In this document: positions 12,226 to 52,707 of the stretch, in pieces
Numbering within the stretch: the first letter of the stretch is position 1
How the letters are laid out: every line of letters begins with the position of its first letter
Source of the DNA: Nemertoderma westbladi
Taxonomy: Eukaryota > Animalia > Xenacoelomorpha
Assembly: GCA_032718475.1 (NCBI GenBank)
Contig: JAUCBJ010001698.1
Location: 1-64,000 of the forward strand
Length of the DNA: 64,000 bases
Direction of reading: 5' to 3'
Notes under the pieces: generated by a model
What the model was told of the DNA's origin: nothing
The model's input: only the letters and a program-made list of their open reading frames with translations
Databases searched by the model: none
Translations under genes and position numbers: made by a program

Positions 12226-13431
12226 TGTTCGCGCTTTCAGACCTTTAGCAGTTTAACCTGCCAAATTTAGGTGTCTTCTAAGTTATAAATCGACTTTAGC
12301 CTATGACGAGTATTTGATACACTACATTAGCCGAAGCCAGCCTATGCGCGACCATTCACCTGCTGGATATACTCGGGAGACTGGATTCGGAAGCTCTGAC
12401 CTTATTGCGGTGTAGGCCTACTGTATTATTCGATTGATCGTTAATATATAATCTCTGACAAATATTATTCACTTTCGGGAAATACTAACAGTTCCTTTAG
12501 GACGTGGCGCTCTAAATATATAAACAGAGTTATGACTTATACTAAACACAACGGGATGGCTAATGATTCACGTATAAGGCGCATTCTTTAGGAGATGCTT
12601 TGTTATCTGTCACAGTCATGCACACTACCGCACAATGCTGCACACCGATCTGCCGACCTTCACTAATTTTAGTCACATATAAAGAGAACAGCAATTGACA
12701 CCTGTAGTGCCTATGAAATAGCATTAGATTCACTCCAAAACCAATATCATATAAGTCGCAATTGCTATATGTAACCGGTCTCTTACCTTCAGTATATCAA
12801 GAAGATGGGGTTTTATGATTATTTATCGATATTATCCAAATATAACAATATTCCATCAACAGATACAATTAATAACCGACAGTAAATAGCAGTAAAATAA
12901 TGCGGTGAAAGTTATGTATAGCATTTGAGTCTGACCAGTTTGGTTTGATATGTGCTGACTTGATATGGTTTGATAACAGTTATACGTTTCGGTAATCAAA
13001 GCCGTTCTAATGTTTGGATAAAGTCTGAAACACAGAATAATTCCATAGCCGATGTTCTGGCATCAGGAAAAAAGGTAAACATAAACCATAATGCATTGCG
13101 CGATTTCCCGGAGGCCTCTGTGCAAATAAAATGAAAATCGCTCTGATTGGTCGAGTGAGTGAACAGAGTGAGCCTGAACAAAGAAAGCTCCACGAGTACA
13201 CTAAATCAGCTGATAGATGTCGTAATCTGAACTACACTGTATTAAGAGTATTTTGGCGCATTGCGACACAAAATGGCTTGTTATGTCCGCCAAAGTACAC
13301 ATACAGAAAAAACTGCTTTTTATGTCCGCTAAACACCGATACAGTAAGAAAACGGCTTTTTATGTCCGTTAAAACATCTACAGAGTACTTTGCGGGGAAA
13401 ATGACTAGCTAATTCCGCAAAAGCCTTTACA
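12226..13431 (-). repeat. Element 1 3' LTR
   Basis: About 99% identical to 29399-30604 (about 9 substitutions counted by eye). Preceded on the minus strand by the purine tract GGGAGCGG. Confidence 0.97.
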
Positions 13432-13509
13432 CCGCTCCCAGAAAATGGGATTTAATTCTATAAAATATAAAAAATCACAGTTTCTAAAATATAAAAATAC
13501 TCTAAACAG

Positions 13510-16500
13510 TTAGTCTTTCTTGCGCGGACGGCGTTTACGCAGTTTTTTGAGGCTAGCAAGAGTCCTTTTCTCTTTGGGGCGAGCCACTTTACTAGGAGGG
13601 CTATAACTCCTGGGTGAAGGGTGCAATACAATTGCATCAGAAGGTTTAGGATTACGGTCGGTGTATCCACCGGTCGAGGTACCTGGTTGATCGATATCTA
13701 CTTCAGTGGAGCGAGGTCTAACGGCCTTTAGAGCGCGTCTTAGGACAGCAGCTCCTACTGGTCCCTGACGAGTCGTCTGGACAATAGCGGTAGGTGGACC
13801 GCGAGTGGTGAGAAACTTCCTCGGTTTAATGGTTCTTTCCAGCTCGCGTTCTCGGGCTCGATATTCGTAGGGCCGTCGATGTACTTCCTGTAACTCAGGG
13901 TGAGAGTTGATGAACAAATCGCCATACTCAGGGTCTTGACGGATGAAATTGGTCAAATTGTATGAATTAATATCGTTAGGATTGATATTCCTGAGATATT
14001 TACGAACAAATTTGGTGGAAATACACTCACCTACACGCTTCATTAGTTCGTAACTCGGTGTGCGCGATTTTTGTTCAACAGACGCGAATAGATAAGGATG
14101 GAACGCGTAAACTCCTTCGTAGGCGCGTCCAGGGTAATAGCGATGGCGTGACTCACAATGTAAATCCGCATTCTCTTCCCAAGCTCGGATGTAGCGCAGG
14201 GTAATCATCTCATCTACGCTTTCCAGATCGCGGTTAAAAGGGCAATCAAAACTGGCATGTCCTTTAAGTTGACAATGATGGCATTGAGTCATAAATTGGG
14301 GGCAGACTGCGAAAATGTGCGAGTTATTGAGTCTGCAATAAGCACAATAGATCTCCATCATCGGTTGTTCATGGAAATAGGAGCAGGGTACGTGTGAGTC
14401 CATAGGGGTGAAATGATCTCTCGATGCGCATAATCGGCAACGTTTTCGAGAAACATAGTTGGCGTGCCGATAATCGTATGCGGTGAGACATTGTGGACCT
14501 TGATACCATTCCAAGACGTAGTCGTTATCGCTGCTCCGGGGCGCTGTAGGCTGAATCTCCTCAGATTCTAAGCATATTGGTTCATCTTCCAATTGCATAG
14601 CTGAGGTAGGTGCGGCTGTCTCCGCAAGCGAACCCACTGTCTGAACTTCCACGACAGAATAACCCGTGGGTATTCGAGGTCTTTGTATAACAGATGAATG
14701 TAAGTTCTGTATACAGACGTCCTTAAAAAGGGCGAATCCCGTGCTGTCTAACTTCTCCGCAGCTGAGTCTCTTAAGCTGAGCTTGGTCAGAGCGCGGTCC
14801 TTGAACTGACTATCAACGTTACGGAACGGAGTCAGAAAGCGCCGGAAACATTCGAAGCGGATGAATTTATTGTGTTCATCTAGCTTGGTGAGTTTGGTTC
14901 CAAGTATTAAGGGATGGGCGCGTATGGTACGACTGCACACATCGGCTAGCCAACCGGCAAGTGCGGCGTTTTCAAAGATCGTGTATATAGCTAAGGAGGG
15001 ACGAAGTGGAACGCTCATAAAGCTATACACGGCGCCAGGTGCGGTCAATGGTCCGTCAAAGTATAATCGAGAATAATGATCTCCATATACTTGTTGGTAG
15101 TTGATAGGATTTCCAACCTTGAAATTCCATCCGTGTTCTTGAAAGGCAAGGTGTCCGATGGAGGTTCGTTGTACTTTAGTGATGCCGCTGGGTGTATTTG
15201 CATACATAGTGCGGAAGAAACCTCGGCCTTCTGCCCAGGGAGCAATCAGCTGAGTATCGACGAAAGGGTATGGAATGTTCTCCATGTTCCGAAAGTCGTT
15301 TTGGAGATCTCCATAAACAGCTCAGCCGATTTTAAGGATTCTTTCGTTAAACAACATCTCGAGCACGGGCTGGGGTAACATCAATCCATCAATACCCATG
15401 GCCGGTTTGCGCTCGGTGTCAGTGACGTAACGCTGCGCGAGTTCGAATTGTCCATGTCGGAGTTTCTTTTGTATCTCGGTAAGGGTCTCAAAAGAATAAT
15501 CAATCACATCGGAACACGCTCGAGTAAATACGTGGGTAGAACCAGCTAGTCCTCGTATATGTATCATGCGCGTAGTTCCCAGTTCTCCAACCGGAACGCT
15601 ACCTTCGCTATCGTAAGTGACAACTCCATACATCTCGATAACGTTAAGAGTCTCATTCCACTCTTTAGTGGCGTTTTCTAGAGTCATTCCCACTGGATGC
15701 CACAAGGTAGCGCATTCGCTAGCATTAGGTAGATCTCTATACTTTAAATATTGTGTAGTATATGTTTCCACATCTCCATATCGTTGTATTCTTTCCTCCT
15801 CGAATAACACGTCGAGATTCCAGTGGGCTAATCGAGTTTTGATGAATCCATCAAGATTATACGGAGGTATTGTCTCTTTCTCTATTCTGGAAACATTATA
15901 GGGTTTTCAAAATGAGTTTACTTTCACTAACTGATCCAGATGTTTCTGTAGTTGTTCGAGTTCGACAAGATCGAGAGGATTTATGAGTGGTAGAAACTTC
16001 AGACTATGTGTAGGATCTTCCGGTTTTACCATGTAATATTGAGTTAGATTGACATAATAAGGATGATCTTTAATCCCATAAAACGAGTTCGGTAAAGGTC
16101 TAGCGCGTATGTTAACCTCGTGTACCATACGAACGGACAAGATCCGCTCTATTGTCCGGAGGTTCAACGAGTATACCATCGACACGAGCGGCCTCGATTG
16201 GCGGACGTTGCAACATGGGAGCGTCAGCGATAAGATCTCGAGATCTTAGGTTGATATCAACTGGTTGAGGTTGCGCCGTGGCGAAGAGTTTGTCTCCGAA
16301 ATGGGGAACCATCGAAGGATGAATGATGGTTTTAGAATAAAGATCAGTCATAAGGATTTGAGCTTCTGGCTGGGCTAAAGCTGCTTCTTCCCTCTCATCC
16401 ATTTCTATGTGTCTCTCCTCGAGCTGATTTTCCTCCGTTTGTCGTTGGAAACGCTCGTCCAGGAACTCTTGTAGAGAATAGGTTCGTCCAAGTTCGATGT

Positions 16501-17611
16501 CTTCCTCAAGGTTCTGGATTTCTCGATCGAACTGTTAGGCCTGGGGTTAAGCCTGGACGGTTGTACGGGTTAAACGGCGATATTAGATGACCGCGTCCTA
16601 ATCCGGCTAGGTAGGGTTGGCGAATATCTAGCGAGCCCACTACCGGAGTACCGCCGATTAATTGTTCGGGTAACACAAGATCTTTAAACAGTGAGTACAG
16701 TTCAGGGGGATCCATTATACTATTAGGATCAAGCGTTTGAGGTCTCACTAAGGAATGAGGAGGTCTGACCGAGTATTCCGGAACTCTGATCATTGGTTTG
16801 TTTAAGGATCGTTTGAGCCGAGCGAGCGTAGGTGATACATCGAACAGGTTTCGCTCGAAACTCCCATAAGTATATCGTGTAAAACTGTGTTTAGCGCAAC
16901 GTCTCCGCGGATGTTTATGTCTTTCCGTTTGCTGATTGGGTCTAGGGCATTCGTCGCAGTAATACCAAAGACGCACGTCCTGCAGGGGAAACGCGGGTGA
17001 TCATTCTCCAGTTTTACAATATTCCTCCATCTGTTCGAAGCTATCTGGGACGACAGGTAGCGGTCGATCGGCGGTAAGATACATCATAGTGAAATAGAGC
17101 CGTTTGAGTTCTATCATAGGGTCATGATGTATACCTTGAGGATATCGAGTTTCTAGATTTTGTTGACTGGCAATATTGAGATATGTTTCTCTCAGGAATT
17201 CCAGATAATCGTTGAAGTCGCTGCGTTTATCTGGCTCTTCAACGTTCTGTTTCGAATAGAATTCTCGTGTTCTATTCTCGGTTTATCGTTACGACTCCGC
17301 TGGGTATGATATTTAAATAAAACCATTTCCCTTTCGGTGTCTACATCGTCCGTATCGTGTAAATCGATAGGATGGCCAGTAGTTAAGAAGTCCATATACG
17401 TACCATTACGATGCGTATAGCGAGCGGTGAATTTTCTATAGTCCAATTCACGCATAAGTTGCTCCTGGGACATTGGCGGTTCGATATAACGACCATCGTC
17501 TTCCGTAGTAGTTGGACCAGCGTCGCCGCGTATTAAGCTATCAACAAACGCTTGTAAAGGTAGAGTATATCGCTCCCTGATACCAAGATCATCTTCTATC
17601 AACTCAGTCAT
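13510..17611 (-). pseudogene. Element 1 extra ORF (ORF3): N-terminal domain, DEDDy 3'-5' exonuclease and CCHC knuckles, broken by stops and frameshifts
   Basis: Fragments 17611-17192, ~17190-16506, 16402-16112, 16185-15907, 15810-15322 and 15285-13510 are colinear with element 2 ORF3. Motifs: VTYDSEG, LPQPVLEMLFNERILKIG*AVYGDL, FVDTQ, CAYCRLNNSHIFAVC, CHHCQLKGHASFDC. Confidence 0.85.
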
Positions 17612-18431
17612 ATCTGCTATATGAGTTTATTAATATTATAATGAGTTTATATTTAGGCTAGTGGGCGTTGCTGCCTACCCCTCTCTGCCCCCGGACAGTG
17701 CAAGATCCTCAGCGCCGATGTACCGTCGTCGCTGTGTTTTCGCCAACGTGTAGCTACACAACGACAACGATAACCGGCACAAGTCACTCCACTGTCCGTC
17801 CCAAAGGCTTAGATTTACTTCAGGTTCTTATGGCAGAGTTAGGGCTACTTTCACAATTGCGACTCGCTACTGTAAACACACTTTAGTAGTAACATTCACC
17901 TATAAACGTACAAATTCCACACAACTGTCACAGATTGTACACATTCGGGCCATTTGTCCGTTAGTCAGTGCCTTCCAGAATGTCACGTTATTATTATGTA
18001 TCCTTGGATACTAGCAGTGTGCTATTTATTCCCTATGCTATTCAATGGGGCAAGCTTTCTATTGTTCTTTTTAACTCACCTCTAATTCTAGCGTGGTTGT
18101 TGCTATGGTGACATTATGGAAAGCTAGCAGTAGCATTAGGGTAATTCTCATGCATACAGATCTGGGATGCTATTTAATAGTAATTCTTTAATTGTCAATA
18201 TCCCCTTTATACATGATTTTATAAATTTTATCGGCAATTGACTATCTATTGGAGATTCTCGCACACTAATACACTTAATAGGGTGAATCTCCGCTCCCAT
18301 ATCTATTAATTAATGGAATTTTGGGAATGTTATAAATTGTATAAAATGACAATTTATCAAATTCATTAAAAGAGATGAATTAGAATTTATTCCCGTAAAT
18401 TTTATTATTTAATATTAAAATAGACACAATT

Positions 18432-19243: not shown

Positions 19244-22200
19244 TTACGTTGGGGAGTCCCTAGATGTTTGTTGGATTAGGGAGGTGGTCGTGGGAAGAGT
19301 ATCTTGCTTTCCATAGTTTCTGGAGAGTTCTCTGTCTCTTTCCAGTAAACATAAACGACCAACTGGGCGATTGAGCTGTTGCGTCTCGAAGACAATTCCC
19401 GGCTTCTTAAAGTTACGTCGCATGACGATGAGTTCTACCGATCGCACTAAACCATCGTCCGAGATATGAGTCTCGATGATACGACCTGTCTGCCACCGCT
19501 TACGTGGAAGGTCTGAATCCACAATAAGGACCATGTCTCCAGCGCTGACGTTTTCTTGCTGCGCAAACCACTTAGTTCGAAGTTGTAGCATGGGCAGATA
19601 ATGTTTTTCGAAATGGTCAGCGAAACGACGGGATAACAACTGCATAAGTTGCCAAGTTTGCTGGCAGTATTCGTCTCCGTCTGTGATTTCCGATCGTGGG
19701 AGCATGGCTACAGGTTTTTTCAGTAGGAAGTGCGCGGGTGTTAGCACTTCCAGGGAATCTGGACTCGATGAGACTGGCATAAGCGGTCTCTCGTTGAGAT
19801 AGGCGGCGATTTCCTCCATTAACGTCCGCAAAAGTTCGTTGGTGAGATATGCGCGGCATGGCACTATAAAGTGAAATGCGGTCTTCATGCTCCTGATTAA
19901 TCTCTCCCAACTTCCTCCCCACCAAGGGGCATCGGCGGCGTTGAAGGTCCAGCTAGATGCTGTTATCCTTAGCTGATCGTCCACCTGTCTTTGGTTCCAA
20001 TCTTTGACGTAAGCCTTGATTTCATTGTTGGCACCAATGAAGTTCGTTCCCTTATCAGATTTCATCGTGTTACTAGTTCCAAAGCGAGCGATCTGTCGGC
20101 GTAAGCTCAAGATGAAGCTATTGGTAGATAAATCGTTCACCATATCGAGATGGATAGCTCTACAAGTCATACAGACAAAGATGACACACCATCTCTTGAC
20201 TATAGTCCTAGCACGATATACTTCAATAGGGCCAAATATATCTACACCGGTATTAGTGAAGGGTGGTTCATAGAAGCTTACTCGTTCCCTAGGTAATTCT
20301 GCCTCTTGCTGTGTTAAAGGCCTACTGAATGCTTTCCTACAGGGTATGCAGTTCCTAAGAACTTGGTTCAGAGCTCTACGGGGTTTATAAAAATAATAGC
20401 GGGTTCGAATTTCGCTAAGAACTCGTTCTCTACCAGCATGATAAAGCTTACTGTGAACATCTACAATCATCTTGATTTGTATTTCAAGATTTCTAATGAG
20501 TATGGGAAACTTAGTGTCAAAGGATAATGGAGCATTAGTTAGTCTTCCTCCAACGCGTATTAACCCATCTATCATTGTGCTAGAGAAACGATCCCTTAAG
20601 CGCATCTGTGGATTTCTCAACAACAGGAAATACTTATCGGAATCCTCATAGCATTGCAGGAGTCTCAGTATCTGCTTATTGCTTTCTTCATGCTCCTGGT
20701 AACTGATCTTCTCCTTCAGAAACCTGTCGGATATCTTGTATTTGGGAGTATCTTTAACAACATGGACCTGTGCAGATGTCAGTGGAGCAGTATCACTAGT
20801 GGTCTTCGTCCTGGAGTAGCGATGATGAAAACATCGCTTTAAATATGTAACGGCTTTACAGAGCCGATTCCAGGAACTACAGTGATGTATCGCTCTCTGC
20901 AGGAGGAGTGAGAGTCCTTGCGAGACGTCTGGCGTTCCAGATTTCCAATCTCTCTCTGTGATTTCCACAACAGACTTATTTGTGGCGGGGGATTGTGGAT
21001 CCAAAGCATCGTCTCCGGAAGTGTGTAGTACCGACAGATCTATCACAGGTTTAAATAACTTCGATTTACTCGCCCGGGTTTTAGGTTTGACTTTCTCCGC
21101 TCCCTTGGCCTGTCTAATCTCCGCCGTAGTAAGATAAGGAGGCCATTCATCTTCTTCTTTGCTTAGGAAGTCGGGTCCACCTAACCAGTCTGGAGTATCT
21201 ATCAGTTCTTGTGGAGTTGCTCCCCTGGAGGCGATGTCTGCTGGATTAATCGTTCCGGGGCAATGTCTCCATTGACCTATCTTCGTGCGACTGAGGATAA
21301 TGGCTACTCTGTTGGTAACAAAGACGCTGAACTGACAGACTTCATTGGTTATATACTCCAACACGAGTAAAGCATCGGTCCAATAAACAGTTTTCTCCAG
21401 TGGATAGTCGATCTGTTCTGTTACATTCCGGCCGATGGCTGTAGCGTATAGAGCCGCTTTTAACTCCGCTCGAGGAACCTTCAACTTGTGGTTAATCAAG
21501 GCCTTAGAGGTAACCAAGGCGACTTTGATTCCATCCGGAGTTTCAACTCTCAGGTAGGCTACTATACCTATTCCCATATCGCTGGCGTCTCCAAACACAT
21601 GGAGTTGATAGGAATACGTAGGGAGAACATGACCAAAATATGAACGGGAAATTATAAAGTTCTCGATGGCTGGTAGAGAATCTTCCCATTTCATCCACTT
21701 CTTTAATAGTTCTCCCTTAAGTGGATCGTCCCATGAGTGGTTTTCAAGCCACATTTGCTGTACTAAACTCCGAGCAATCAATATAACTGGGCTAATAAAT
21801 CCCAATGGATCGAAATAAGTGCTCAGGATACTTAAACAAATCCGTTTAGTCCAAACTGGATTATCTCGCTGTTTTAGCTGAAAAAACAGGATATCTCTCT
21901 CTGTGTCCCATTTCAAACCAAGAGTCTTGGTTTCTGGAAGATCGTCTTTGATTAGGTCTAGATCTTTCGCTCCTCGGTCTTCTACTGGAATCAATTCCAG
22001 AAACTCATGGGAGTTGCTGGTGAATTTAGTCAATCGAAATCCACCTCTTTTCAAGCACTCTACCGTCCCTTTGGTGACGTCAATGGCTTCTTCCACTGAT
22101 GGGAGGGACTTTAAATTGTTGTCCATGTATATATCCCGTTTGATGTTGACGATCACCTCTTTAGAGAAGGCGTCCCGGTTGTCATCAGCAGTGGTCCGCA

Positions 22201-25200
22201 CCACTGAGCAGACGTTTGAAGGGCTTGAGATGATCCCAAAAGCCTGGATGGTCATCCAGTACTCCACCGGTTTCTGATTGAGGTCTCCTTCAGGCCACCA
22301 CAGAAATCGTAGGCTGTCGCGATCCCTTTCCAGCGCCTTAACTTGTAAGAACATGCCTTCTATATCCGAAGCAAAAGCAATCGAATATTGTCGTAATCTT
22401 AAGAGTATTCCCAACAAGGATTGGAGTAAGTTGGGTCCAGGCAATAACTCGGAATTAAGTGATTAGCCCATGTAGAGGGCGGAGCCGTCAAATACTACAC
22501 GGACTTCATGGGGTTTACCGGGTTTGGGAACGTAATGATGTGTTAGATAGTACGTCCTCTCAGTTATGGGTGTTTCTTCCGGTACTCGCTCCGCGTATCC
22601 TTTGTTAATAAATTTCTTCAACTGAATCTTGTACATTTCCTTAGCTGAAGCATTTGCCGTAAGGCGTCGATGTAGTTGCGCAATTCTTTTCTCCGCCAAG
22701 GGTCGGTTGTTTACGAATTTAGGTTCCCGTTTTCGAAATGGTAGACCGATTTCATATCTACCTTGATCTTTAAGAAAACGTGTAGTTGTCTCCTGGATCT
22801 GTTTGGCTCTTTCTTCTTCTACCGATAGGGCCTTATCGTAGGAATTGGGCTCTACGGCCTCTTGAGTAAAGAATCGTACGGCGTGTTCATCCCGAGTTTT
22901 CACGTTGTAGCGATCTATTACGTCATTCAGTTCGTCGTTATAGTTGACTTGTCCTGATGGACGAATGAGTTGACATAGGTTCACTTGGTTTTGCCAAGTT
23001 TCGTTTTCCGTAAGGAGGTCGATGGTATGGTGTATGGTGTTCCCTCAGTTGGGTCATCCACCTCACTGCTCTCCACTTCCCATCACTTACTTGGTAGACC
23101 CGTTCTTTGGGTAATCTTTCCATGAGAGTTCTACGGGAAGGGCCAGTAAAGTACCAACCTACTCTAGTTCTTCCCGCATAGACTTGTAATGGTTGCGGTT
23201 GAGCACGCCGTTTCTCCAATGTCTCAAGCGCCTCATGCGCATTTTGGCCGATGAGTATTTGCACTCCAGGGTAGTCTGTGTTCAATCTAGGTATCTTAAG
23301 CTGCTGGGTGCAATCATCCTCGTCCCAGTTATAAGGTTCCACTTGGCTGGTAGCGAAGTTCTTTATCGCCACCATTTTTACTGACCTTATACTGTGTTCT
23401 CCTAGTTCATCCTGGGGGGTGGACAACGCACCTACATAGTAATCTGCAATTACTGTAGATTTCCAAACCTGCATAATTCCTGACATGTTTAACTTAGTTC
23501 GGAACTTGGGTTGTCCAGCAAAGATGTCTTCGGCTAGTTCTTTGTCGATGAATGTTCCTGTGCTGCCGGAGTCAAGAAGGGCGTTCACTATATAGCTTTT
23601 TCGTGGCCCGTGGACTCTCACCTGCACTACGGGAAATTCTCGGATTCCTACATTGGAAGTTGGTGCTTTCCAAGATGGTTGTCGGTCGGGAGTAGTTAGG
23701 GGGGGCTCACTGTCGGTGTCCTTTTCATACGTAAGTGCTCGATACACTGCGGTATTTATTAGGTAACAGGATTCGTCTTCGTCGGAGAATTCGTCCGTAT
23801 AGAATCCTTCCATCTCAGAACTTTGGTCAGTGTCGTTCACATCACTGAATTGGACATGTAGTTCGGACTCACTTACCTGACTCGGGCTGTTTCGTTCGAA
23901 TTCAGTGTGCAACAAGATATGATGCTTTGCGCCGCACTTGGCACACCTTGCGTCGGAGTAACAGGTTCGCCGTTGGTGTCCTTGTCTGAGGCAATTATAA
24001 CACAACCGCTTATCCTACATGACTTCACGTCTATCTTTTAATGATTTCTTTAGGAATTCATCACACACATTCAAACGGTGGGGCCCGTCACATAGCACAC
24101 ATTTCGGTTTGATGTTACTTACCTTATTCTGAGTAACGTTGTGTACACTCGTTCTTTCCTCGGGCTTTCTTACATGAATTCTCTTAGGAGACGTAGGAGG
24201 AGTTTTTCTTAACTGTTCTCTCCTGTCATTGGTTCGAGACTTGAATTTACCTACGTCTTTAGGCGTTTTGTTGACATAGTAAGATCTTTCAGCTGTCTTC
24301 TTCTTGAGAAGCCTGGCTTTCACCATCGTCGGTATAACACACTGGTGTTACCTTTCTCCTAGAAACGGGTTTCTCACTTACCTTATTTTCCGTTGTCTTC
24401 TCTCTGGACTGCTTTAGGAGCTGTAGTTTTACCTCGCCATCCAAGAATGACATGAGATCAGCCATGGTAGGGTCTCGTCGTTGTTGTTCCATCATATATA
24501 ACACTTTCTTGTCCCAGCGTGTACCTACTCCACCCTTTGGTAAAGTAGAGGCCACAGCTCCAATAACCATAGAACTCTGATATTCATGAGACTTACCTAG
24601 CCAATCTAATTGTCTACAGATCTCCTGAATCTCATCGGAAAACTCTATAATCCCGCTGCTAATGAACTTTCGGGGCGCTACTAATTTTGCATACAAATAC
24701 CTAGCTATGTTATTCCTATTACCATACCTGATATTTAATGTATCCCAAAATGTATCCTAATGTTATCTTTGTAATATTCATTAAAAGGTAACCATTTCAT
24801 CTCATCTCCATTGAACTTGACGATCTCTCCCACCTTTACCGCTTGACGGGCTTCGGTTCTAGCCATTTGACGCGTAAAACTTTCTTGGGCCATCGTATTA
24901 TTTAATATCGAGTTATCGGTATATAAATTTCTCGGATTATGATCAGGTCTATATGGAATATCATTGTCAACAGGTTTATAATTACCCTTAATAGGGTTTA
25001 CTATAGGAGTTTCTACTTCACTAGCAGTATAGATGCGTGTAGGCTCCACACCTTGCGCATGAAATACTTCAGACCTAACAGGTTGACACATTGTTACAGG
25101 GGGTGGTAGTATACCCTTTTGTATATTTACCAATTTATCGCGTTCTAACGCGATATTCTGCTGCACTTCTTGCAACTCTAACCTACTCTCTCTGACTGTT

Positions 25201-27213
25201 CCCTTTAACTGCTGAACAGTCCCTTCCATCTCCCGGACCTGTTGAGAGGAACACAAACGGTGTTCTCTCAGCTGCCTGAGCAGGAGACCCATCTCCCGCC
25301 GTCCTTCTTCCACCCACTCGACCGCCGAAGCGGGAGGCGCCAACATAGTAGCGGATAGACGAGGGACAACGGGCGACAAATCATTGATATTTCGCTCGGA
25401 GTCCAGAACAGGAACTGTCCCAGAGGCAGTTCTGTTGGGCACAGGTAATTTAGTACTGTGCAAAGGGAGTTTAGGGGTAGGTTCCGGGAGTACAGGTGTC
25501 TCTATCACCGAAGGGGTGGCTTCGAGAACAGGCCTAATTATTTCAGGCTCATCTACTATAGTAGGAAGTCTTTTTACTTTTAATTTGGTCTGTGGGTTCT
25601 GTACTACCTAAGTCTGTGCTAGCTAGTTGCCTTCTCACAGTTGGGGGCAAATCAGGCAATTTCTGACAGTGGGGCGTTCTTCTACGCCTGCTGAGAAGAG
25701 ATCTATTTGCTCTGCCTTCAGGATCTGTTGTATCGCCTTCATCCGATGATGAATAGCCCTGTCTCTTGGGGGTGGATCGACTTATCATCTGCATTTGACT
25801 AGCTGTTAACTGCTTATCTATGTATTCTTGCGTCTCTTGCAGATTTTCCAGCTCTAGTTGGGTGGTCTCTTCAGACGCTCTCCTTTCTGCTTCTGCCACT
25901 GCCTCTGCCGCTTTTCTTTCCGCTTCAGCTGCTGCCACTGCCGCTTTTCTTTCCACTTCTGCCGCTTTTCTTTCCGCTTCGGCCACTGCCACCGCCGCTT
26001 TTCTTTTCGCTTCTGCCTCTGCCGCTGCTGCTGTCTTTCTGTCTTCTATACGTTTTTTCTTCACTTGTTCTTCTTGGACTCTAGCGATGCGGAGGCGTTC
26101 ATCAAATTTAGCTTGGTTTGCAGCTAACATTTCCGCATCTATTGCGTCCAACACAAGCTTGGCTCCTTCACTATTAGGGCGAAGTCCAGCCAGCCGTCTC
26201 CTCAACTCTTCATCTCCTAGAAATCTTTGATAGTCTGACAGATAGATGTCAATAGCGTCCCTCGTCTGCGGTTTCTCTGCTGTCGCTTCACTTTCCACTT
26301 GAGAGAAGGTAGCGTATGTTGATTCTCCATGGGCTGAGCGCTCAGCCAACTGAGATTTCCACTGGGTGGTTCCTTGAACTTTGAGACTCACCCGCTGGAA
26401 CCAAGTCTTCACGGCAACTTGCAACGACGTGTCTTGTTTTCTTTTCGAAGCCTCCTCAAAGGCCGATAGGATTAGTCTGATTCTTAGAATTCTTTCTCTA
26501 ACTTGATAAAGCAGCTCTCCCTTCTCTTGAGGTCCTTGGGGTTGTTGAAACAGTTGTTCTTCTAATCGCTCCAAAGAGCTGAAGAATCCCTGTACATATC
26601 CTGCTGCTGACCTCTTCCACACAGCTGGATCACTAGTGTCTTTTGTCACTCCCATCTTGTATATGTCTTCCCAGGCAGCTTCCGATAAGTCAAACGGGAG
26701 TCCGGGTCCGGGGAAGTTCCATTGCGACTCGACAATAGACTTCAGTTCCTCCTTGGTGTATCCCGCATAACTGTCCTTGGTTGATCGCCTACCTCTCGCC
26801 CAATCAATTTGGTGTTCCTCCACCGCAATCAATACCTTAGTGAGTACGGCTGCAGGAAGAAGGAGAAGGGGATCCGAATAAACCGCATCTACCATCCTTG
26901 CTCCGTGTTCGGGTGTCAGCTCTACAGTATCCGAACTACTGGAGCTATCTGGTCGCTGAGAAATAAGTTCTCGGCTCGGGTGTTTCTGCTGTTTGACAGC
27001 TGCTTCTTGATCCCGCTTGACTTGAGCCCGAGTGCCTATGATAGACCTACGGTGTTGGACTAGCCTAGGGTCTGATACTACTACTGGAGGGATGATCTTT
27101 CTTATAGTAGGAGGTGAATTGAACTTCGGTCTCACACATTCCACACTCCTGTCTGGGTCACATATGGTTGTATCTAAGAGACTGTCTGACAGGTTTTGCT
27201 TTGTATCAGACAT
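19244..27213 (-). pseudogene. Element 1 gag-pol (BEL/Pao), disrupted
   Basis: Gag coiled coil, knuckles CYNCLRQGHQRRTC, protease ALLDSGS, RT, RNase H LHVFGDAS, integrase GVDIFGP/SDKGTNF/WERLI. In-frame stops at 24015 and 22463, several frameshifts, and the RT motif reads YMDN. Confidence 0.95.
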
Positions 27214-29398: not shown

Positions 29399-30604
29399 TG
29401 TTCGCGCTTTCAGACCTTTAGCAGTTTAACCTGCCAAATTTAGGTGTCTTCTAAGTTATAAATCGACTTTAGCCTATGACGAGTATTTGATACACTACAT
29501 TAGCCGAAGCCAGCCTATGCGCGACCATTCACCCGCTGGATATACCCGGGAGACTGGATACGGAAGCTCTGACCTTATTGCGGTGTAGGCCTACTGTATT
29601 ATTCGATTGATCGTTAATATATAATCTCTGACAAATATTATTCACTTTCGGGAAATACTAACAGTTCCTTTAGGACGTGGCGCTCTAAATATATAAACAG
29701 AGTTATGACTTATACTAAACACAACGGGATGGCTAATGATTCACGTATAAGGCGCATTCTTTAGGAGATGCTTTGTTATCTGTCACAGTCATGCACACTA
29801 CCGCACAATGCTGCACACCGATCTGCCGACCTTCACTAATTTTAGTCACATATAAAGAGAACAGCAATTGACACCTGTAGTGCCTATGAAATAGCATTAG
29901 ATTCACTCCAAAACCAATATCATATAAGTCGCAATTGCTATATGTAACCGGTCTCTTACCTTCAGTATATCAAGAAGATGGGGTTTTATGATTATTTATG
30001 GATATTATCCAAATATAACAATATTCCATCAACAGATACAATTAATAACCGACAGTAAATAGCAGTAAAATAATGCGGTGAAAGGTATGTATAGCATTTG
30101 AGTCTGACCAGTTTGGTTTGATATGTGCTGACTTGATATGGTTTGATAACAGTTATACGTTTCGGTAATCAAAGCCGTTCTAATGTTTGGCTAAAGTCTG
30201 AAACACAGAATAATTCCATAGCCGATGTTCTGGCATCAGGAAAAAAGGTAAACATAAACCATAATGCATTGCGCGATTTCCCGGAGGCCTCTGTGCAAAT
30301 AAAATGAAAATCGCTCTGATTGGTCGAGTGAGTGAACAGAGTGAGCCTGAACAAAGAAAGCTCCACGAGTACACTAAATCAGCTGATAGATGTCGTAATC
30401 TGAACTACACTGTATTAAGAGTATTTTGGCGCATTGCGACACAAAATGGCTTGTTATGTCCGCCAAAGTACACATACAGAAAAAACAGCTTTTTATGTCC
30501 GCTAAACACCGATACAGTAAGAAAACGGCTTTTTATGTCCGTTATAACATCTACAGAGTACTTTGCAGGGAAAATGACTAGCTAATTCCGCAAAAGCCTT
30601 TACA
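29399..30604 (-). repeat. Element 1 5' LTR
   Basis: Copy of 12226-13431, followed on the plus strand by TSD AGGCC. Confidence 0.97.
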
Positions 30605-32946: not shown

Positions 32947-34890
32947 TATAGAATTATATTCTCTAAATGCCGTGGATTTTCAAAATTTTATTTTATTCGA
33001 ATTAACTTTGTAAAAGATTGCTTTGAATCCTCATTTGTATTTGTTATATCTATTGTACGCCTATTGGTCAAGTGGTTCAGTAGCTCAGTCGGTAGAGCGT
33101 TGGAAATTATATGTGTAGTAGGTATTGAGTTCGAATCCTAGTAAGAGCGAATTATTTTTTGTGCAGAATTTCAACTCATTTAAATTAACCGCTACAAATT
33201 AATTGCATTTGTCTGTACCAATGAGACTGTAGTTATTTGATTGTAACCAATGTCGTGCAAGTTATATATTAGCTGGACCAATAGCTATCTTTAAAACCCT
33301 GTTAGAACCTATAGAACAATCGAGAATTTTCTCGATTGATTGCAGCACAAATTTGCTATATAAAGGTGCGATTTGTTCATTAGTTATTCAATCTTCAATC
33401 TTATACATCTCAGTATTTACATTCATTATCTCAGTGCATTCTATCTATATCTTTCTGATCTTATTAGTTATTATCTTATCTGTTTGATTTTGTAATAAAA
33501 GTTAGAAATACTTGTCAATCTCAGCCCTTTTCTATCTGTTTTACCATGATTCACTACGGTGAACAAACCTAAGGGACAGGATGGCCGGCCAGAGATCGGG
33601 CCGCAGCAATGAACGGGAACATCGGGGGAATGTAGACGAGAGACAACCCGCAATACCATCTTGAGTTATTCGCCCATCGCCTGAAAGGTTAGACAGCGTT
33701 CGACGCCTTGCTACCTAAGTATAAGACCAAAAGATCATAAGGTAGAAGTAGTGGCACGCTGTGAGCCTAAAATTACATCTTAGGGACTGTACTGTCTTGA
33801 TTCAGGAAAAAACCACAGTAGACCTTCATATTCCTACGGGGGGGGGGGAGAGCGCAGGCAGATACTAGTACGCAGATAGGACGTAGGCACACCGGTACGA
33901 AGCATACAAATTGGTAGGGTGCAGCAAACTGTACGCCTAACTCTTGCTAAGTACAGGTGTGTGTGCGACTATTTGTAGTACGACAGTGTCCATTGCATTA
34001 GAACTTGTAGGCTAGGGGGGTTGCTGTGTTTTCACCTGAATTGGGATTGTACCGTTCAGGCGGTAGGGCAGTTTACAGCTAGGCGCAAATAAATTGAGGC
34101 TATTAGGGATACTAACATCTACCGTGTCCCCGCCAACGCCCAAATAGGAAGTTACCCGGACTACCTGGGTGACTAAAATTCTAGATAGGAGCCAGGATAG
34201 CTATTAGTAACTGTACGCCTACAGTAGTAAACTAACACATCTCTTCTTAGTATCAGGGACCTGGTACCTAAAATTGCCGAATTCTGGGCGTAGCATTAAC
34301 CTTATGCCTGAATTTGAGTCCTGGAAATACGCAAGAGGGGAAGGAACCTTATCATTCGTGAGTATTGGACCTACAAGTTACAAAATTAGAATATTCGTAA
34401 AATGCACACCGTACCCAGTAATTATATATGTGAAGGAGCAAAACTGTCTTTGACCGTTCAGAATTAACACACGCGCGTTAGAAATTATTTACACCTCAAA
34501 ATATATAAAATTAACTTTCGTCCGTACTGTGCTTTGCCCGCTAGTTAGACATCTCCAAATCTCTGCCTGTGTACCTAGCTAGCGTCCTTTCGCCCAACCA
34601 TATAAATCACACCGCGGCAAAGTGTACGAGCCTCTTAGTCCGTCAGTGAGTCAGCCTGATTTTAGGATTCGCTGCGCGGGATTTTGTTTCACCGAAGTTT
34701 GTCTGCTCGTAGACTGTTTTCTGCCTCACCGGTTATAAGAGATCAATACTGCAATATATTCGCTTACTTAGTTTACTGTTTTGGTGAGAAGGTCGGATTT
34801 ATGATTTGATTCACAAACTTTACAGTAGGATATTGCAGGTATTGTTACTGTCTCTTCCATATAGTAGGAATAGGCGTATCTCTTCCAATA
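32947..34890 (+). repeat. Element 2 5' LTR (1944 bp, TA...TA ends)
   Basis: Identity with the 3' copy starts at TATAGAATT and ends at CTTCCAATA. TATATAAA at 33357; AATAAA at 33494 and 34088. Confidence 0.95.
33074..33160 (+). promoter_or_regulatory. tRNA-derived Pol III cassette in the LTR (second copy 49921-50007)
   Basis: A box/D-arm TAGCTCAGTCGGTAGAGC, B box GAGTTCGAATCC, T6 terminator. Acceptor and anticodon stems do not pair. Confidence 0.7.
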
Positions 34891-35740: not shown

Positions 35741-38700
35741 ATGAGTGACAAACAAAACTATACGAAAAATACACAAACCGACTATGACTCATGTGACGCG
35801 GATAAGTCAGCAGCGGAAGAACAACAGGGGAAGACTCGCGAGCCTACCGAACCTACACCGTGTGCGTCACCAGTACATCCAACGGGAGTACCGGATGCCG
35901 TAGTACGAGGCGACGGCAGGACCAAGGACTTTCTAACTGTTCCGCAACCTAGATACAGGGAAACGGACATGGTGAGTTCAGCAGGAAGTCAGGAAAGCGT
36001 TGTTAGGAGCGTCGGAGGATACATGGCGCATATTACCAGGAGTATTGGAGAAGGCCAATGCGTATTAGACGAGTTGACTGCGCCGATGTCTCGATTCGAG
36101 TTCTACACCCTCCAGGTGAGAGTACAGAGTAAAGTATATAAGTCCGTAGATAACCTAATTGGTCTACAAGATCTAGCTAGACAGAGACAGGACATGGATA
36201 CTCAACTTAGAATCCTCGAGAAACTAATGATCGCTAGAGAGAAACTGATTCAGTTTAAGTCGACGATTAGACACATACAACAGGAACAAGCGGACCAGTT
36301 GTTAGGTGAGTCAGTTTCGGACGAATTATTACAGCCCGAGGAAGAACAGGAACTGTACCGACTGGATGGACAATTGAAACATCTGACGGACCACTTACGT
36401 ATGTGCGGCGAAGACGTCGGCGATTCGGAAACCGTACCGGAATATACGAGGGAAACTTCACCCGTACGAATCGAATCGGCACCGGGAATACTGGACCAAT
36501 CGTTAGTGAGTATTCGCAGCGAAATTGGCGAGATAAGTATAGTGACGTCAGAAATTTCCAGACAGCAACAACAAGTGGATAGACAACAACGGGAAGCGGA
36601 GGAACAAGCTCAACTGTTGACGGCACAAGGAGCCGTACAAGAAGAAAAACTACGCGTTGCGGATGTTGCAAGAATCTCTCATCTGCAAGAACAAGCCGAG
36701 TTGGAAGCGGCTGAGATGGAAAGGTTGGAGCTAGAAATAGCACAGCGAACAGCGGCAGCTGAGTTAGCGCAACAAGCGGCAGCAGCTGAGTTAGCGCAAC
36801 AAGCGGCAGCAGCTGAGTTAGAACGACAAGCGGCAGCAGCTGAGTTGGAAGAACACAAGCGAGTTTCGGAAGCAAGAGCTGAAATGAAAAAACGGCAAAT
36901 AAAGGCTCAATCAGTGATAAGACAAGCGGAGCTCGAGGCGCAACAACGACAGACGGAACAACGCGAGAAGGAAGTTAAACTTCATTTCGAACTCGGGAAG
37001 AAGGCGAGAGAATTAGCCAACGCGAAGGAAGATCTGGATCTGCAAGCCCGCGATCGATCAATGAGATCTCGAGACGGACATGACTTGGACCAGATAGAGG
37101 TAAGACATCGCCAAATTCAGGAATGGAAGAAGGAAGGAAGCGTAGGAGCACCCGGACGGGAACGACAATTAGTAAAGGACTTGTGTCAACGATTCCCACA
37201 GGTAACTCATATGTTTGCACCGGTTACGACTAAGGAACCTGTTTCGATTGCGGGTAGTAGTAACATTTATCCTATCCATGGTGCGACGGAACACAGGTTT
37301 GTTATTCCGGACGAGTTTACACCGCCAAGAGCAACGTCGTCGCCTATTCCGAAAGTCAAGGTAAGTAACCCACCGATTACAGATCGTAGTAGTTTATTAG
37401 TCGAACCTGTATTACTGACGACTAAACAGGTGAGTCCACCTCTGACGCCAAAACCTGTTACACACTACGCTTACCCAATGACGTTTAGGCCAACAAGGCC
37501 TTTGGATTCAAACGCTGTTACTCGACCACCGGTTCAGTTTACATCGCAATCTACGACTTCGAGGAAGACTTGTGAGCCTACCGAACAACAGAGAACAGTG
37601 GATACGCGACCGTTCAACCAATTTACATCGCAATCTACGACTTCGAGGAAGACTTGTGAGCCTACCGAACAACGGAGAACAGTGGATACGCGACCGTTCA
37701 ACAAATTTACATCGCAATCTACGACTTCGAGGAAGACTTGTGAGCCTACCGAACAACGGAGATCAGTGGACGATGTTCCAAAGCGAAACGTTAGAATTCG
37801 TACGACGCAATGGACGCGAGCACGTCGACCACCATATCCAGATGATAGTAGTACTTCGAGCGAATCGGATTACCCGAAACGCGAGGTATTTAGAACAGGG
37901 GCGGCCGATGAATACAAACGCGAGCGTTCAGACAACTCCTTTGTAGACAATCCTCCACAGAATACACCAACACAGAAGGCGTTACAACCAACGAGGCAAA
38001 TCAGTACACAACAGTTCGCCGACATCCTGCGACCAGTTGTTAACAAGTTGGCTCAGATCGAGGAGCGTCTGGAGGAAGTTCAAACCGACAGTTCGAGGAA
38101 CACTGAGTTCGAACACAATAGACACCCGAAGGAACCACAAAGACCGGTACCTTCAAAACACACATCGTATCAGGGAAAAGCGCCAAGAAGGGAGAATATC
38201 AACCTGGTTACCAACCAAGGACGCGAAACTCTGAACGTTGCCGAGGAGATAGCGAAATTCGCAGCCAGACAAGGATTGCCGGTACAACAACCACCGAAGT
38301 TTTCCGGTAGCTCAAAACACTGGCACACTTTCGTAGACTATATCGAATCCCAGATCGCCATGTGCGCCTTTACATCACGGGAGAAGTTCAATTACCTGCT
38401 CCAAACGTTGTCAGGAGAACCTAAACGTTTGGCAGAGACTTTCGTCGGTGTACCGGACGCCTTCGAACTAGCGTACGATCGTTTAACTTCGATATATGGA
38501 GGTACAGTCAGTATGGCCAGGTCAGTAATAGAGGAACTCTGTAAGGGAGGGGCTATCACTAAACCCGTCGACTTATTAAAACTGGCCGACGAGATAAAGA
38601 ACGCTATCACTACTTTAAGATCCATTGGACAACTTGACTACGGGAATACCCCTACAGTCCTATTAAAGATCATAGGACGACTCCACCATCGACTTCGTCG

Positions 38701-41700
38701 GGAGTGGAGAAAGATCGAATACCAGCGAGAAGAGCGGGGTGGATTCTTAAAACTAGAGGATGTGTACCTTTTAATATCCAGGGAGGCAGTAGTAGAAACT
38801 CGATCTAACTACACTGACCAGCACATCGTGGCAGAAGGAATCACATTGCCATCCTCCAACCGACAAAAACCCCAGACAACATCCACTAAGACGGCCACTT
38901 ACACCACACCGACGGAATCACGACAATTCTCGGACGGTAGTAGGGTATCTGCGCCCATTGGGACAAAACAGACGAGACAACAACTCGGTACCGACTTCAG
39001 CGGCTGCCAATACTGCGAGCATCTAGGCAAGCGGTATATCGGTCACAAGTTGAGGGGTTGTCGACAGTTTCGCGAGTTGAACTCGGAAGAACGACGGCTG
39101 CAGATACGGCCACTGGACTCTTGTTGGCGGTGTACGCGACACGGACACGTCCGTAAAGATTGCCCAAATACCGACACTTGTCCATCCTGTGGACGCAACC
39201 ACGACGGTCTGCTCCACACAGACAGCCACACACCGACAAAACGCTTCGCCAGGGAACACCCGGAAGCAGCAGCGAGATGTGATGCGGCCTACAGAAAACG
39301 AGAATCGAAAACGACTCCAACCTTCGTGACCCATATTGAGGATTGCTTCTCAGAACAACCCGGATCGTCGGACGAAGAGTCAGAAGACGACGACGTATAT
39401 TCGGATGGAGATGAACAGCCATCGATCGCGCTTCTGACTACTGACCAACTAAAGGGATTTAGTGTAATTCCGATTAAGATTACCGGCACAAAGGGGAGTA
39501 AAAGAATCTACGCGATTCTAGATTCAGCCTCATGTCACAGCTACGTGGATGAAAAGATAGCTGACGTCGTGACGGATCTCAGACAAGGTAAGCGCGTCAG
39601 TTATACCGTAAGTAGTATGCACGGACTACGTGCAATACCAGTGACACGAGTCAAGTTAAACTTAGACTCTCTTCTTCCGAAATCGCAACACAGCGAGAGG
39701 GAGAGGTCTTTGTTACCCTTCAAGGATTTGACCTTTGCGGCCACAAAAGACTTTAGTAACCTACTAGGTCCGGTCCCAGAACAATCCTTGGAGGACCGTA
39801 AGTATTTCAGACACCTTGGTGTACCAGAATGTCCTGTCAATTATAGATCGGTAGCCATGCTGATCGGGACAGACCAATTCAACCTACATCAAGTGTGGGA
39901 AACCAGACCATCGGCAGTCGTAGCGGGAAACGCATACGCCTGCAGAACGCCGATAGGGTGGTATACTCGAGCGCCTGTGCGCACACTGGACATAAGTGAA
40001 GAGGAAGACGATGTACGAAGTACATGTAGTTTATTAACTACAAATTCAATTCATTCCTTCTCACACGACGTGAACCATACTACACTACAGTCGACAAAAC
40101 GTGACAGACGTGTAACTAGTATGATAAGTCACAAGGAGCAGCTAATCCACCAGCGGAGTTTAGAACTTGGGGAGAAGACGAGTCAGCTAGAGATTCCATC
40201 GACGACAGATGATAACGCCGGAAGGCTTGCGAGTCTACCTACCCCAACGACATCAACAATGCCCGTCGAGATCGATGATGACGCGTTGAGAAATCATCAA
40301 ATGGAACAAGCTGCACTGGACAAAGAATTAACGGAGAAGACTATCAGGTGGTTAGAACAAGATACAGCTGAACCTGGTAGCTACGAACCTTGTATGTCGG
40401 AACAGGAGAAACAATCTCTGAAGATCATGGAAGATACTATCCGACAGACGGAGGACGGACATTATGAGGTAGGGATGTTATGGCGTAGCCAAAGTCCTAA
40501 ACTCACAAATAACTATCCACTGGCTTTAAGACGTCTACACTCAATACGGCAACGTCTATTAAAGGACGAGAAAGCCCATCTGCAGTATAACACTCAGATG
40601 GAGACGTATTTGACTAAAGGATACGCTATCCGAATGACTAACCCAGAGATAGTGACTGACCAAACATATTACTTGCCACATCACTATGTGAGACACCCCG
40701 ACAAACCAGATAAAGTACGCGTAGTCAATGACTGTGCGGCTCTGTTTGAGGGAATGTCCCTCAATAGTGAGTTGATGGATGGACCAAACATGAATAATTA
40801 TCTTATGGGGGTGATTATGCGCTTCCGTCAGCGTCAAGTAGCTTTTACTTGTGACGTTGAAGCGATGTTTCACCAAGTGAGAGCGTTAGAGCGAGACAGA
40901 GACAGTTTGCGGTTCCTCTGGTACCTGGAAGGAGACTTAAGTCTACCACCGGCGACTTACCAAATGCAAGTTCGCGTTTTCGGTGCCAGAGACAGCCCAA
41001 ATTGCACGATGTACGCCCTAAAACAAGCCGCTAGAGATCAGAAACATCTATATGACCCAGAGATAATTAAAATCGTAGAACGTGACTTTTACGTAGACGA
41101 CGGATTACAGAGTTGCGACACAGTAGAACGTGCTACAACAGTAGCACATCAATTACGGGACTGCTTAGCGGGCGGAGGTTTTAACCTCACCAAATTCGCC
41201 TCAAACAGTGCCGAATTAGTAGACTCATTCGGAACGACTGAGCGTGGAGGTGGTGACATAGACCTAGAGTTCGAACCACTACCGACGACCAAGGTGTTGG
41301 GGCTCTTTTGGGACCCAAACACGGACAACTTCCGAGTGAAAGTAAGACTGGACAGTCAAGAAAACACACTGACAAAGAGATCATGCTTGTCAAAATTGAG
41401 CCGATTGTTCGATCCGTTAGGATTCATCAGTCCAGTAATACTGCAAGCCCGCATTTATATGCGCAGTATTTGGAAGGATGGACTAACATGGGACGAGCCG
41501 ATCTCATCAGACCAAGTGGACTTATGGAAGACCTGGGAGGCGGAATTATCTTCGCTAGAGGATTATTCCATACCCAGAGTTTACTTTCCATTACAAAGTA
41601 CATTTCCTGACAACTTGGAACTACACTGTTTTTCTGACGCCAGTGACAACGGTTTTGGTGTGGCAGCGTACTTGCGCAGACAAGTAGACTCAGAAGCATT

Positions 41701-45156: not shown

Positions 45157-48100
45157 ATGGAGAAAGGGATACAAGGAGAGCCGAGATGGGGATATGATAT
45201 CCAAGAGGAGGCAGCAGCGCCATTCGAAAGATTTGGAGCCAAGGACTACACTATATTTGGTATAAAAGAATTATCGGAAAGTACAGCGAAACTCGCGAGA
45301 ACTAAATATGACTCGAATGTATTAAAGAGAAGACAAAACGCATTAAACGAAAGAATCGAAAGTTTGCGTCAAACCTTCAATGAACTTTACCCGTACGACG
45401 CTTTGTGTGATACGGGAGACATTAGCGAAGACCCCGATACTGAAATTAGTCGTTTGTATCATACCATGCAATACCTAAAGGCACACGAACCTATGCCCGC
45501 GGTAAGAGATGAATTCGATGGAATGCATCTTTACAGACGAACTCGAGGGGACGATAGAGAAACCAAGGAAGCATTTTCAGTTTATAAACTTTATTATCAA
45601 TGCGGTTCTTGAATGCGCGAACAACGAAATGCGATTCCGATGCGTTTGAATAAGGAAAATCCCGAACCGATATTGGCGAGGTGTTCGAATCATCAACAAC
45701 TACGCTACCAGGAAGGAGGGTATCCTTTATCGAATCCATATCATTCATTTGCTATGACCGGACCAAAGGCGGGAGAAACTGTCATTTACCCACCTAAGGT
45801 TGTTGAACCCGATGTATTTGAACTTACGCTGGACGAGGCGAATCAGTCAACCCGCGAAAAGAAAGAAGCTCTTAGCCTATACAGAGCCTACAAGGCTTTC
45901 GAGAAAGGTGAGATGGAAGAATGGGGTGGAAGACTCGCGAGCCTACCTTGCCATTGGACGTCACACGATCAAACTTCAGCTAAGGAGATGACACCGGAAG
46001 TTTTCGAGAGCATAAACTTTGCTCAAAACGTTATTCAGAGACTACAGATTGCATCCCCGGAGAGGACAAGAGAAATGCAACCGTATAGTACTTCAACTAC
46101 GAAACCATTGAGTACGACACTCAACTTTCCTATTAGTATACCAGTCCGACAGGATACGACGTACGAAATACCCATCGTGGATCATCCAGAAATCATTTCA
46201 AACTTGGAGTTTCTTCCTGCAGTTGTTTTCAGCGATATGAGTAAGATATATGATTTACGTAGACATATTACTCAAAAGGTCGTGTACAACGTTCCACCTC
46301 ATATTCAAGATTTCAAGGAACTGGATAGAGCTGGTGCCGATATAGCTCCGAGTAATCTGAAAGGATATCTAACCGAGACGATTCGTTTATGGATTGGAAC
46401 CGGAACCTTCGAGTCGGATACAGATATTGCCGCAGATTGGCGAGGTAAGGTTATTCGTTTCGAAGATGATAAGGATATAGAGAAGATTTGGCAACCTTCG
46501 GAAGAATTGTTGGATGAATGGAATAGGACGTTCAGATCGTTTCAGGAAAATGGTAACATGTTTTACGATAACGAGGGCGGCAGTCATCAGCAGAGTTTGA
46601 CTTCTAAGACTATACAGATTAGAGCGGCGGACGGAGTCCTGCACGTTTTCAGTAGACAGAGGAGCGACAAACGAATGCCGATACCTCCAGCGAATACAAA
46701 GCGACACCATCTTATCACCGATATAGTAAAGAAGATGGACCAAGCTTGTAATATTGACGCTAGAATGCTACCGAAGATGGTAAGAAACATGATTTTAGAT
46801 AAAACTGTTGTAAAGATTGGATCAGGAGTAAGGGAGGATTTAATTAGCGACTTCGCCGGCATGACGGACAGCGATGACCGACTACCGACACCTTACGTCG
46901 ACACTCGACCTCTTATCTTGTGGTCTATAGAACAGGGATATTTTCGTGAGTACAATACTCAGAAGACTGGAACTGGGTACATTTCCTACCTGTTATTCAA
47001 TTGGGATTATAAGGAAAATAAGAGAAACAAGTATATTGAAACTTATGGAGAAGGTGATACTCCAGATATGAGTGAGTTTGAATCACAGCTTAAATGGAGA
47101 GGATGCGTGTATTGGGCCATTACGTCACCTCCAAGAGCGGTCTTACAATATTATTTAGCAATAGAGTCGTCAGTGAATGTTTGCTTAATCGCCGACATTG
47201 TGTCTCGGACTCTCAAAAGACATCCACTTTGTCTCGGAGAAGATCATACGTTCTACATGGAAGGGAGAATTCGTACCGACGTGTTTAGACGATTCCTTGA
47301 ACCCTTCTACAACTCCGACGCTCAGTGTAATGCCTTTACTCGAGCAGGATTTAGTATATTTCGAGACGTGTATCTTCGCTGTGCGGGATCTCTTATCGAA
47401 AGACCATCTATGTTTACATTGTTACCCTATGAAGGAGAACGTATCGTGGAGATTACGGAAGAATCACGGCAGACGCGCGCGCCTATCGGTCACCTTGGTG
47501 ATGATTTCGAAGTAACTACTACGATCGCTGACGATCCTTTAGAGGAACTTCTTGAGATAGAAAGGAACCTCCCGAAGAAATCTCAGACGGAGATTCGACA
47601 ACTTGAAGCAACAGATGCTATAGTTTGTATACAACCTTCAGAAACCTACCAACCCATAGACCCAGATGATTACGATTATAGTATGGGAGGAAGCGCTCGA
47701 CCGATTGGAGATCTTATATACGAACGAGTGTGGTACCCTGCCAATACGATGTGTAGTAAATGTGGCGTCGCTGGACATCATATGACAAAGTGCAGTGGAA
47801 AGCACATTACTACGACTCAGCTAATCTGTGGATGGTGTGGGGATCAAGGGTCTCATACATTTTATACTTGCTGGAGATTTATGGCTCAATGTACTTACTG
47901 CAATATAAAGGGACATCGAGCATCTGAATGCCAATTAAGAGACATACCTTATGAACACGAATCTGTAAAACTCGTGAGGAAATTATTCGATGAGTGGGAA
48001 GATTTAGCCGACGAACATGTATCGGCACAAAGAAGACGGTTTCCGATGAGAGCGCATCTCGGATTTTGGGCGGTAAATCCCCAGACGATGATGTCGGAAG

Positions 48101-52641: not shown

Positions 52642-52707
52642 AATACTAATACACATACGTTATGTGAACATACCTTTAGTCTGACAATTATTTCTATTTT
52701 ATTTTAG

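Follow-up and report, generated by a model that had tools for sequence, protein, structure and literature searches.

The 64-kb window, which is the whole stretch of Nemertoderma westbladi DNA analyzed here, contains two BEL/Pao LTR elements that point away from each other, and in each of them about 4 kb of coding sequence follows the integrase on the same strand. The question raised by this locus is what the third gene, ORF3, encodes, whether the two elements inherited it together with pol, and what it might do for an LTR retrotransposon. The elements and their genes are laid out as follows.

12226-30604, minus strand: element 1, a complete BEL/Pao LTR element (18,379 bp)
29399..30604, minus strand: 5' LTR of element 1 (1206 bp)
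12226..13431, minus strand: 3' LTR of element 1 (1206 bp, TG..CA ends, 99.25% identity to 29399-30604)
13432..13445, minus strand: purine-rich tract with the end GGAGCGG, adjoining the 3' LTR and common to element 2
19244..27213, minus strand: gag-pol of element 1 (protease, RT, RNase H, integrase; PF05380, PF18701, PF17921), broken
13510..17611, minus strand: ORF3 of element 1, a broken copy
32947-51734, plus strand: element 2, a complete BEL/Pao LTR element (18,788 bp)
32947..34890, plus strand: 5' LTR of element 2 (1944 bp, TA..TA ends)
49794..51734, plus strand: 3' LTR of element 2
35741..44494, plus strand: gag-pol of element 2, a single open frame
45157..48882, plus strand: ORF3 of element 2 (1241 codons, one stop at 45610, three knuckles)

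Both elements have a Pao-type pol in Pfam (PF05380, E 2.5e-36 and 4e-42, plus PF18701 and PF17921) with the order protease, RT, RNase H, integrase, and both have two LTRs and a target-site duplication, as in BEL/Pao. Element 1 is flanked by AGGCC, and 9 mismatches separate its LTRs; element 2 is flanked by ATGTT, and its LTR pair differs by four mismatches and one 3-bp gap. The purine-rich tract next to the 3' LTR is likely the plus-strand primer site of each element. ORF3 of element 1 is interrupted by in-frame stops at 17003, 15909 and 15324 and by frame changes near 17200, 16520 and 16120, and its gag-pol by no fewer than four frame changes and two stops; this copy is therefore defective in both genes. 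The ORF3 copy of element 2 is likewise interrupted, by its one stop, and its exonuclease domain (about 46414-47322) is naturally uninterrupted.

Several other features were recorded in the window. The LTR termini of element 2 are TA...TA instead of TG..CA, with a clean 5-bp duplication. A 50-nt motif with GGAAGACT(C/T)G(C/T)G occurs five times around and within ORF3 of element 2 (44759-49507, family D11), and a 43-bp tandem array adjoins this element (52046-52727). The 1.6-kb spacer from pol to ORF3 in element 1 holds a 135-nt tandem duplication (18400-18700, 79%). At 62862-64000 lies an LTR with about 71% identity to the element 1 LTR, and after it come a purine tract and a 3' leader resembling those of element 1; this is a third element, related to element 1, running off the window. 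A 163-codon open frame on the minus strand (59649-60140) matches 5-formyltetrahydrofolate cyclo-ligase (PF01812, E 6e-37) and is probably a host gene. Long palindromic repeats lie at the window start (365-1517) and near 57 kb (56632-57391).

An earlier note on this DNA had proposed that the two elements carry the same, colinear ORF3 in the absence of DNA similarity. Whole-element blastn between them gives nothing at E 0.01, and their LTRs, described there as dissimilar, have only chance matches of 10-15 nt in common. The proteins agree far better. When ORF3 of element 2, with X at its one stop, was used as a tblastn query against the window, element 1 was matched at 16005-13942 (27.6% over 744 columns, E 3.5e-62) and again at 17228-16857 (30%, E 5.5e-8). 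The Smith-Waterman score of the two ORF3s is 429, as compared to a maximum of 58 in 200 shuffles. These data bear out the proposed homology, and all five motif pairs quoted in its favor are present in the translations. In both elements, ORF3 has the polarity of gag-pol and sits downstream of the integrase, ahead of the 3' LTR. Conservation falls into three blocks: about 130 residues that form an N-terminal domain, the exonuclease domain with its extension, and the knuckles with the segment that follows. Colinearity holds for position, strand and these three blocks. It does not extend over the whole length, since neither the first ~120 codons of element 1 (17195..17611; score 33 versus a shuffle mean of 32.8) nor its linker piece (16534-16112; score 34 versus a shuffle mean of 34) has any similarity to element 2; the start at 17611 is a predicted one. 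The parts of ORF3 in element 1 are given below.

17195..17611, minus strand: first ORF3 piece, from a predicted ATG
16857..17228, minus strand: conserved N-terminal domain with CxxC..CxxH (E 5.5e-8)
14808..15720, minus strand: putative DEDDy-like 3'-5' exonuclease domain
14242..14439, minus strand: three CCHC-type zinc knuckles, the first atypically spaced
13936..14241, minus strand: conserved post-knuckle segment, no family assigned
13510..13935, minus strand: C-terminal tail, basic at its end

The two elements are 36% identical in the exonuclease domain and 30% identical in the knuckles and C-terminal part, as compared to 45% in RT/RNase H and 43% in the integrase. This agrees with the idea of an exonuclease-like gene kept over a long divergence. 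The N-terminal domain is conserved, as claimed (score 136 versus a maximum of 56 in shuffles), and is possibly zinc-binding. Its CxxC..CxxH motif, however, is complete only in element 1; the stop in element 2 falls inside it. Pfam gives no family for the N-terminal pieces. Taken by itself, the post-knuckle segment is conserved as well: its score against element 2 is 117, with a maximum of 47 and none of 500 shuffles reaching it. Among known structures, the knuckle region resembles retroviral nucleocapsids (E 7.5e-4). Lysine and arginine account for 28% of the last 60 residues in element 1 and 27% in element 2. A hydropathy scan shows no transmembrane segment (highest 19-residue values 1.19 in element 1 and 1.38 in element 2) and thus no membrane anchor of the kind expected in an env-like ORF3.

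The central domain of ORF3 is very probably a DEDDy-type 3'-5' exonuclease, as judged from sequence motifs, profiles and learned features. For residues 200-610 of the element 2 protein (P0001), ESM features return PF01612 in 24 of 30 matches (0.92), with 163 shared features, which is under the 170 typical of same-family matches. In Pfam itself, neither ORF3 matches an exonuclease family, even with the cutoff relaxed to E 10, and PDB searches with single ORF3 sequences or a two-row profile give no exonuclease. A profile built from the exonuclease domains of the two elements and run against 1.84 billion proteins retrieved only P0006 (E 1.6e-7) and P0007 (E 8e-4). Both are environmental relatives, and all four of their pairings with the elements score higher than any of 500 shuffles. 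P0006 has its knuckles downstream of the exonuclease, as in ORF3; its own Pfam matches are weak (PF01612, E 0.2; zf-CCHC, E 0.046), and its nearest ESM cluster, a lead only, combines PF01612 with zf-CCHC (0.86). A C-terminal motif of P0006 that resembles the post-knuckle segment by eye was rejected, as its score was reached in 302 and 461 of 500 shuffles.

With these relatives aligned, the catalytic motifs are assigned as follows.

Element 1, minus strand: ExoI D 15612 and E 15606; ExoII D 15309; ExoIII Y 14985 and E 14973
Element 2, plus strand: ExoI D 46567 and E 46573; ExoII D 46837; ExoIII Y 47152 and E 47164

The ExoI D and E, the ExoII D and the ExoIII Y are invariant in all four rows (the two elements, P0006 and P0007). 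The ExoIII acid, at Tyr+4, is Glu in both elements and P0006 and Asp in P0007. In a search of the PDB with the four-row profile, the best match is human EXD2, with an E-value that depends on the alignment: 0.015, 5e-4 (from an alignment that misplaces the N-terminus of P0006) or 0.006, the last beside the unrelated KRas at 0.007. The match places ExoII on Asp171 and ExoIII on Tyr242/Asp246, where numbering assumes that the chain starts at residue 76; these are the ExoII and ExoIII residues of human EXD2 given in the excerpt of PMC6648332 (PDB 6k17). The ExoIII stretch contributes just 1.7 bits to it, and the ExoI DxE, which lies outside the EXD2 alignment, was assigned by motif. Structure predictions were of low confidence (pLDDT 29.5 and 40.4). 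With a low-pLDDT model, Foldseek found nothing at E 0.001, and VIA-align reached a best Z of 3.3, with EXD1 and WRN at 2.5-2.6 among the noise; these outcomes weigh neither for nor against the fold. Word-based homolog searches over limited length ranges returned 0 of 2979 and 0 of 2554, and only P0006 itself among 7988. No match was obtained in ORF3-based locus scans of metagenomes and viral contigs or in prokaryote genomes scanned with P0006. A single tblastn match in phages was rejected as chance.

ExoIII had been described in the earlier note as unrecognizable in element 1, with the suggestion that some members may be catalytically altered RNA binders. The description does not hold: YxxxE is present in element 1 just as in element 2, and because the single Asp-to-Glu variant is common to both, element 1 is not a separately altered member. 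The variant does lend weight to another reading, in which ORF3 of both elements alike would be a catalytically dead or weak RNA binder with an exonuclease fold, comparable to EXD1 or Maelstrom and serving small-RNA granules as a decoy or adaptor. The glutamate also occurs in P0006, for which EXD1-like ESM clusters are found (0.77, a lead only), and EXD1 and Maelstrom are listed among the inactive derivatives of DEDD enzymes in the excerpt of PMC5408684. However, all four positions remain acidic and the tyrosine is retained at 25-36% identity, and the canonical Asp persists in P0007. Inactivated enzymes typically lose such acidic residues altogether, which also speaks against an inactive binder, and we regard such a binder as unlikely. 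Retained catalysis, despite the glutamate at ExoIII, is somewhat the better expectation.

How the gene came to be in both elements was examined through the integrase and through related loci. An integrase scan of metagenomes yielded 32 BEL loci at 24-41% identity, and the same scan of viral contigs yielded none. ORF3 was matched in 0 of the 32, most of which are too short to reveal one; of 23 loci measured, just 8 extend more than 2 kb downstream, so most are uninformative on its absence. Two do lack room for it: L001, a complete element in which pol ends about 60 bp before the 3' LTR, and L004, a 6.2-kb circular contig. A 978-aa ORF after the integrase of L002 was considered as an ORF3 and rejected, as it is gag. 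In L014, a 510-codon open frame about 4.7 kb past the BEL integrase (5712-7241) has neither a Pfam family nor an ORF3 match. An integrase tree of 16 rows, comprising the two elements and those 14 of the 32 loci whose match spans 300 columns or more, with no named superfamily references (BEL, Pao, Tas, Suzu, Sinbad), places elements 1 and 2 as sisters with support of 100/99. They are the closest pair in the tree, with a long-branch warning at this pair. Element 1 had been presented as belonging to a second, highly divergent family, which is overstated for the closest pair in the tree.

ORF3 was probably inherited with pol from a common ancestor of the two BEL/Pao families. Its descent with pol is plausible because the elements are sisters among the 16 rows. 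In addition, ORF3 (30-36% identity) and pol (43-45%) have diverged to a similar extent, which, together with the absence of DNA similarity, excludes a recent exchange. These observations, along with the identical position, strand and domain order of ORF3 in both elements, argue against the alternative of a mobile cassette or a captured host gene, gained separately or exchanged, which would not define a lineage and may be dispensable. Such a cassette would fit the rotifer DEDDy ORF3s, which according to the excerpt of PMC5408684 were gained at least twice and occur in Athena elements as well. It would also fit the exonuclease-knuckle layout of P0006, which is the same, and the interruption of both window copies. 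On balance, we consider it very improbable. Contigs of four public runs cover both elements lengthwise in many variant copies. From about 103,000 pieces the tool selected 32; among these, 11 of the 12 listed from element 1 ORF3, which are 10-20% different, have no gap, and all three listed non-coding pieces have gaps. The gene thus looks old and constrained, as far as these contig pieces indicate. To call it lineage-defining, as was done before, goes too far, even if descent with pol is plausible: the term rests on two families, both from one host, in which the ORF3 lineage is known.

The function that we propose for ORF3 is that of a soluble DEDDy-type exonuclease, inherited with pol and held on RNA by its knuckles, that acts against host small silencing RNAs. 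As a whole, this reading has about an even chance of being correct. In the first step, ORF3 would be expressed separately from a spliced sub-genomic RNA, a step that could equally well prove right or wrong. A motif scan finds a branch-point and acceptor-like site shortly upstream of the ORF3 start in element 2; the same scan finds no acceptor-like site in element 1. The three zinc knuckles would then hold the exonuclease on RNA, and the exonuclease would shorten or degrade the small silencing RNAs that the host directs against the element.

An active exonuclease could instead serve replication, trimming the 3' ends of element RNA, primer or cDNA inside the particle, with the knuckles as extra nucleocapsid-like modules. 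The domain evidence is the same for this reading, and the match of the knuckle region to retroviral nucleocapsid structures suits it. Processing of 3' ends was proposed by Rodriguez et al. for the rotifer DEDDy ORF3s (excerpt of PMC5408684). Moreover, no tRNA-type primer-binding site is seen by eye after the 5' LTR of either element, and the first 12 nt past the 5' LTR of element 2 (34891-34902) are the reverse complement of 33826-33837 (LTR positions 880-891), a self-priming-like signature reached in 2 of 500 shuffles. In element 1, however, the leader and LTR match over only 8 nt, as 111 of 500 shuffles do, and other BEL elements (L001 and L004) replicate without ORF3. A role in replication is judged rather unlikely.

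Small silencing RNAs are favored as the target of the ORF3 exonuclease because other BEL elements replicate without the gene and because related cellular enzymes, mut-7/Nibbler and EXD1, act in small-RNA pathways. By this analogy the target is a tentative choice, held at somewhat less than even confidence. The widest form of the proposal is that an old clade of giant BEL/Pao elements encodes an active, knuckle-guided RNA exonuclease with a D-E-D-E site that destroys silencing RNAs, and that the family is also present in unplaced environmental sequences; this we regard as doubtful. ORF3 bears on the question of whether animal transposons encode enzymes against small-RNA silencing. If true, an active ORF3 that destroys silencing RNAs would be a transposon-encoded enzymatic counter-defense in animals.

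These elements can be compared with known systems. Both have the features described for Belpaoviridae (PMC8742986): LTRs, a target-site duplication, the order gag-protease-RT-RNase H-integrase and Pao-type Pfam domains. At 18.4-18.8 kb they are longer than the 4.2-10 kb of that profile, a difference that is descriptive and not a criterion of descent, and the 1.9-kb LTR of element 2 exceeds its 0.2-1.2 kb. A tRNA-type primer site is expected in Belpaoviridae, unlike what is seen by eye here, and the only third gene in the profile is env-like, in contrast to ORF3. In comparison with DEDDy exonucleases of the EXD2/WRN type (PF01612), as far as the excerpted sources describe them, ORF3 has ExoII and ExoIII in register and a DxE at the expected ExoI position, but it differs from EXD2 in the Glu at the Asp246 position, in insertions, in falling below the Pfam threshold and in its fusion to knuckles. 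A transposon-borne DEDDy exonuclease is also found in the Dada DNA transposons of Laccaria and Ectocarpus (excerpt of PMC3706591). There it lies inside the DDE transposase with four canonical residues, whereas ORF3 is a separate retroelement ORF.

No exonuclease ORF3 in BEL/Pao is reported among the matches listed, judged by titles and the starts of abstracts; subscription journals, Repbase and supplements may differ. The word "exonuclease" is absent from the main text of PMC3118150 and PMC13524379, in the portions available. The closest parallel is in bdelloid rotifers, where DEDDy ORF3s of unproven activity occur in the Juno and Vesta LTR retrotransposons and in Athena/Terminon elements (excerpt of PMC5408684), a description repeated in the excerpts of PMC5718144, PMC6338049 and PMC6431247. 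As described there, the Juno/Vesta gene, like ORF3 here, is a non-envelope, non-membrane, DEDDy-like gene downstream of pol with unproven activity, and in each case one acidic position has changed from D to E. The motif is written DEED for the rotifer ORF3 in these excerpts and is D-E-D-E here. Compared by published description, the carrier here is BEL/Pao, unlike Juno/Vesta. In contrast to the rotifer gene as excerpted, ORF3 here runs to 1,240-1,370 codons and has in addition an N-terminal domain, three knuckles and a conserved segment behind them. A long-kept nuclease in the third-gene slot of BEL/Pao would carry the rotifer observation over to a second LTR superfamily and would suggest that retrotransposons repeatedly recruit RNA exonucleases. 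A putative nuclease third gene is known from rotifers; the present variant is distinguished by its BEL/Pao carrier, the D-E-D-E site, the knuckles and two domains with no family assigned.
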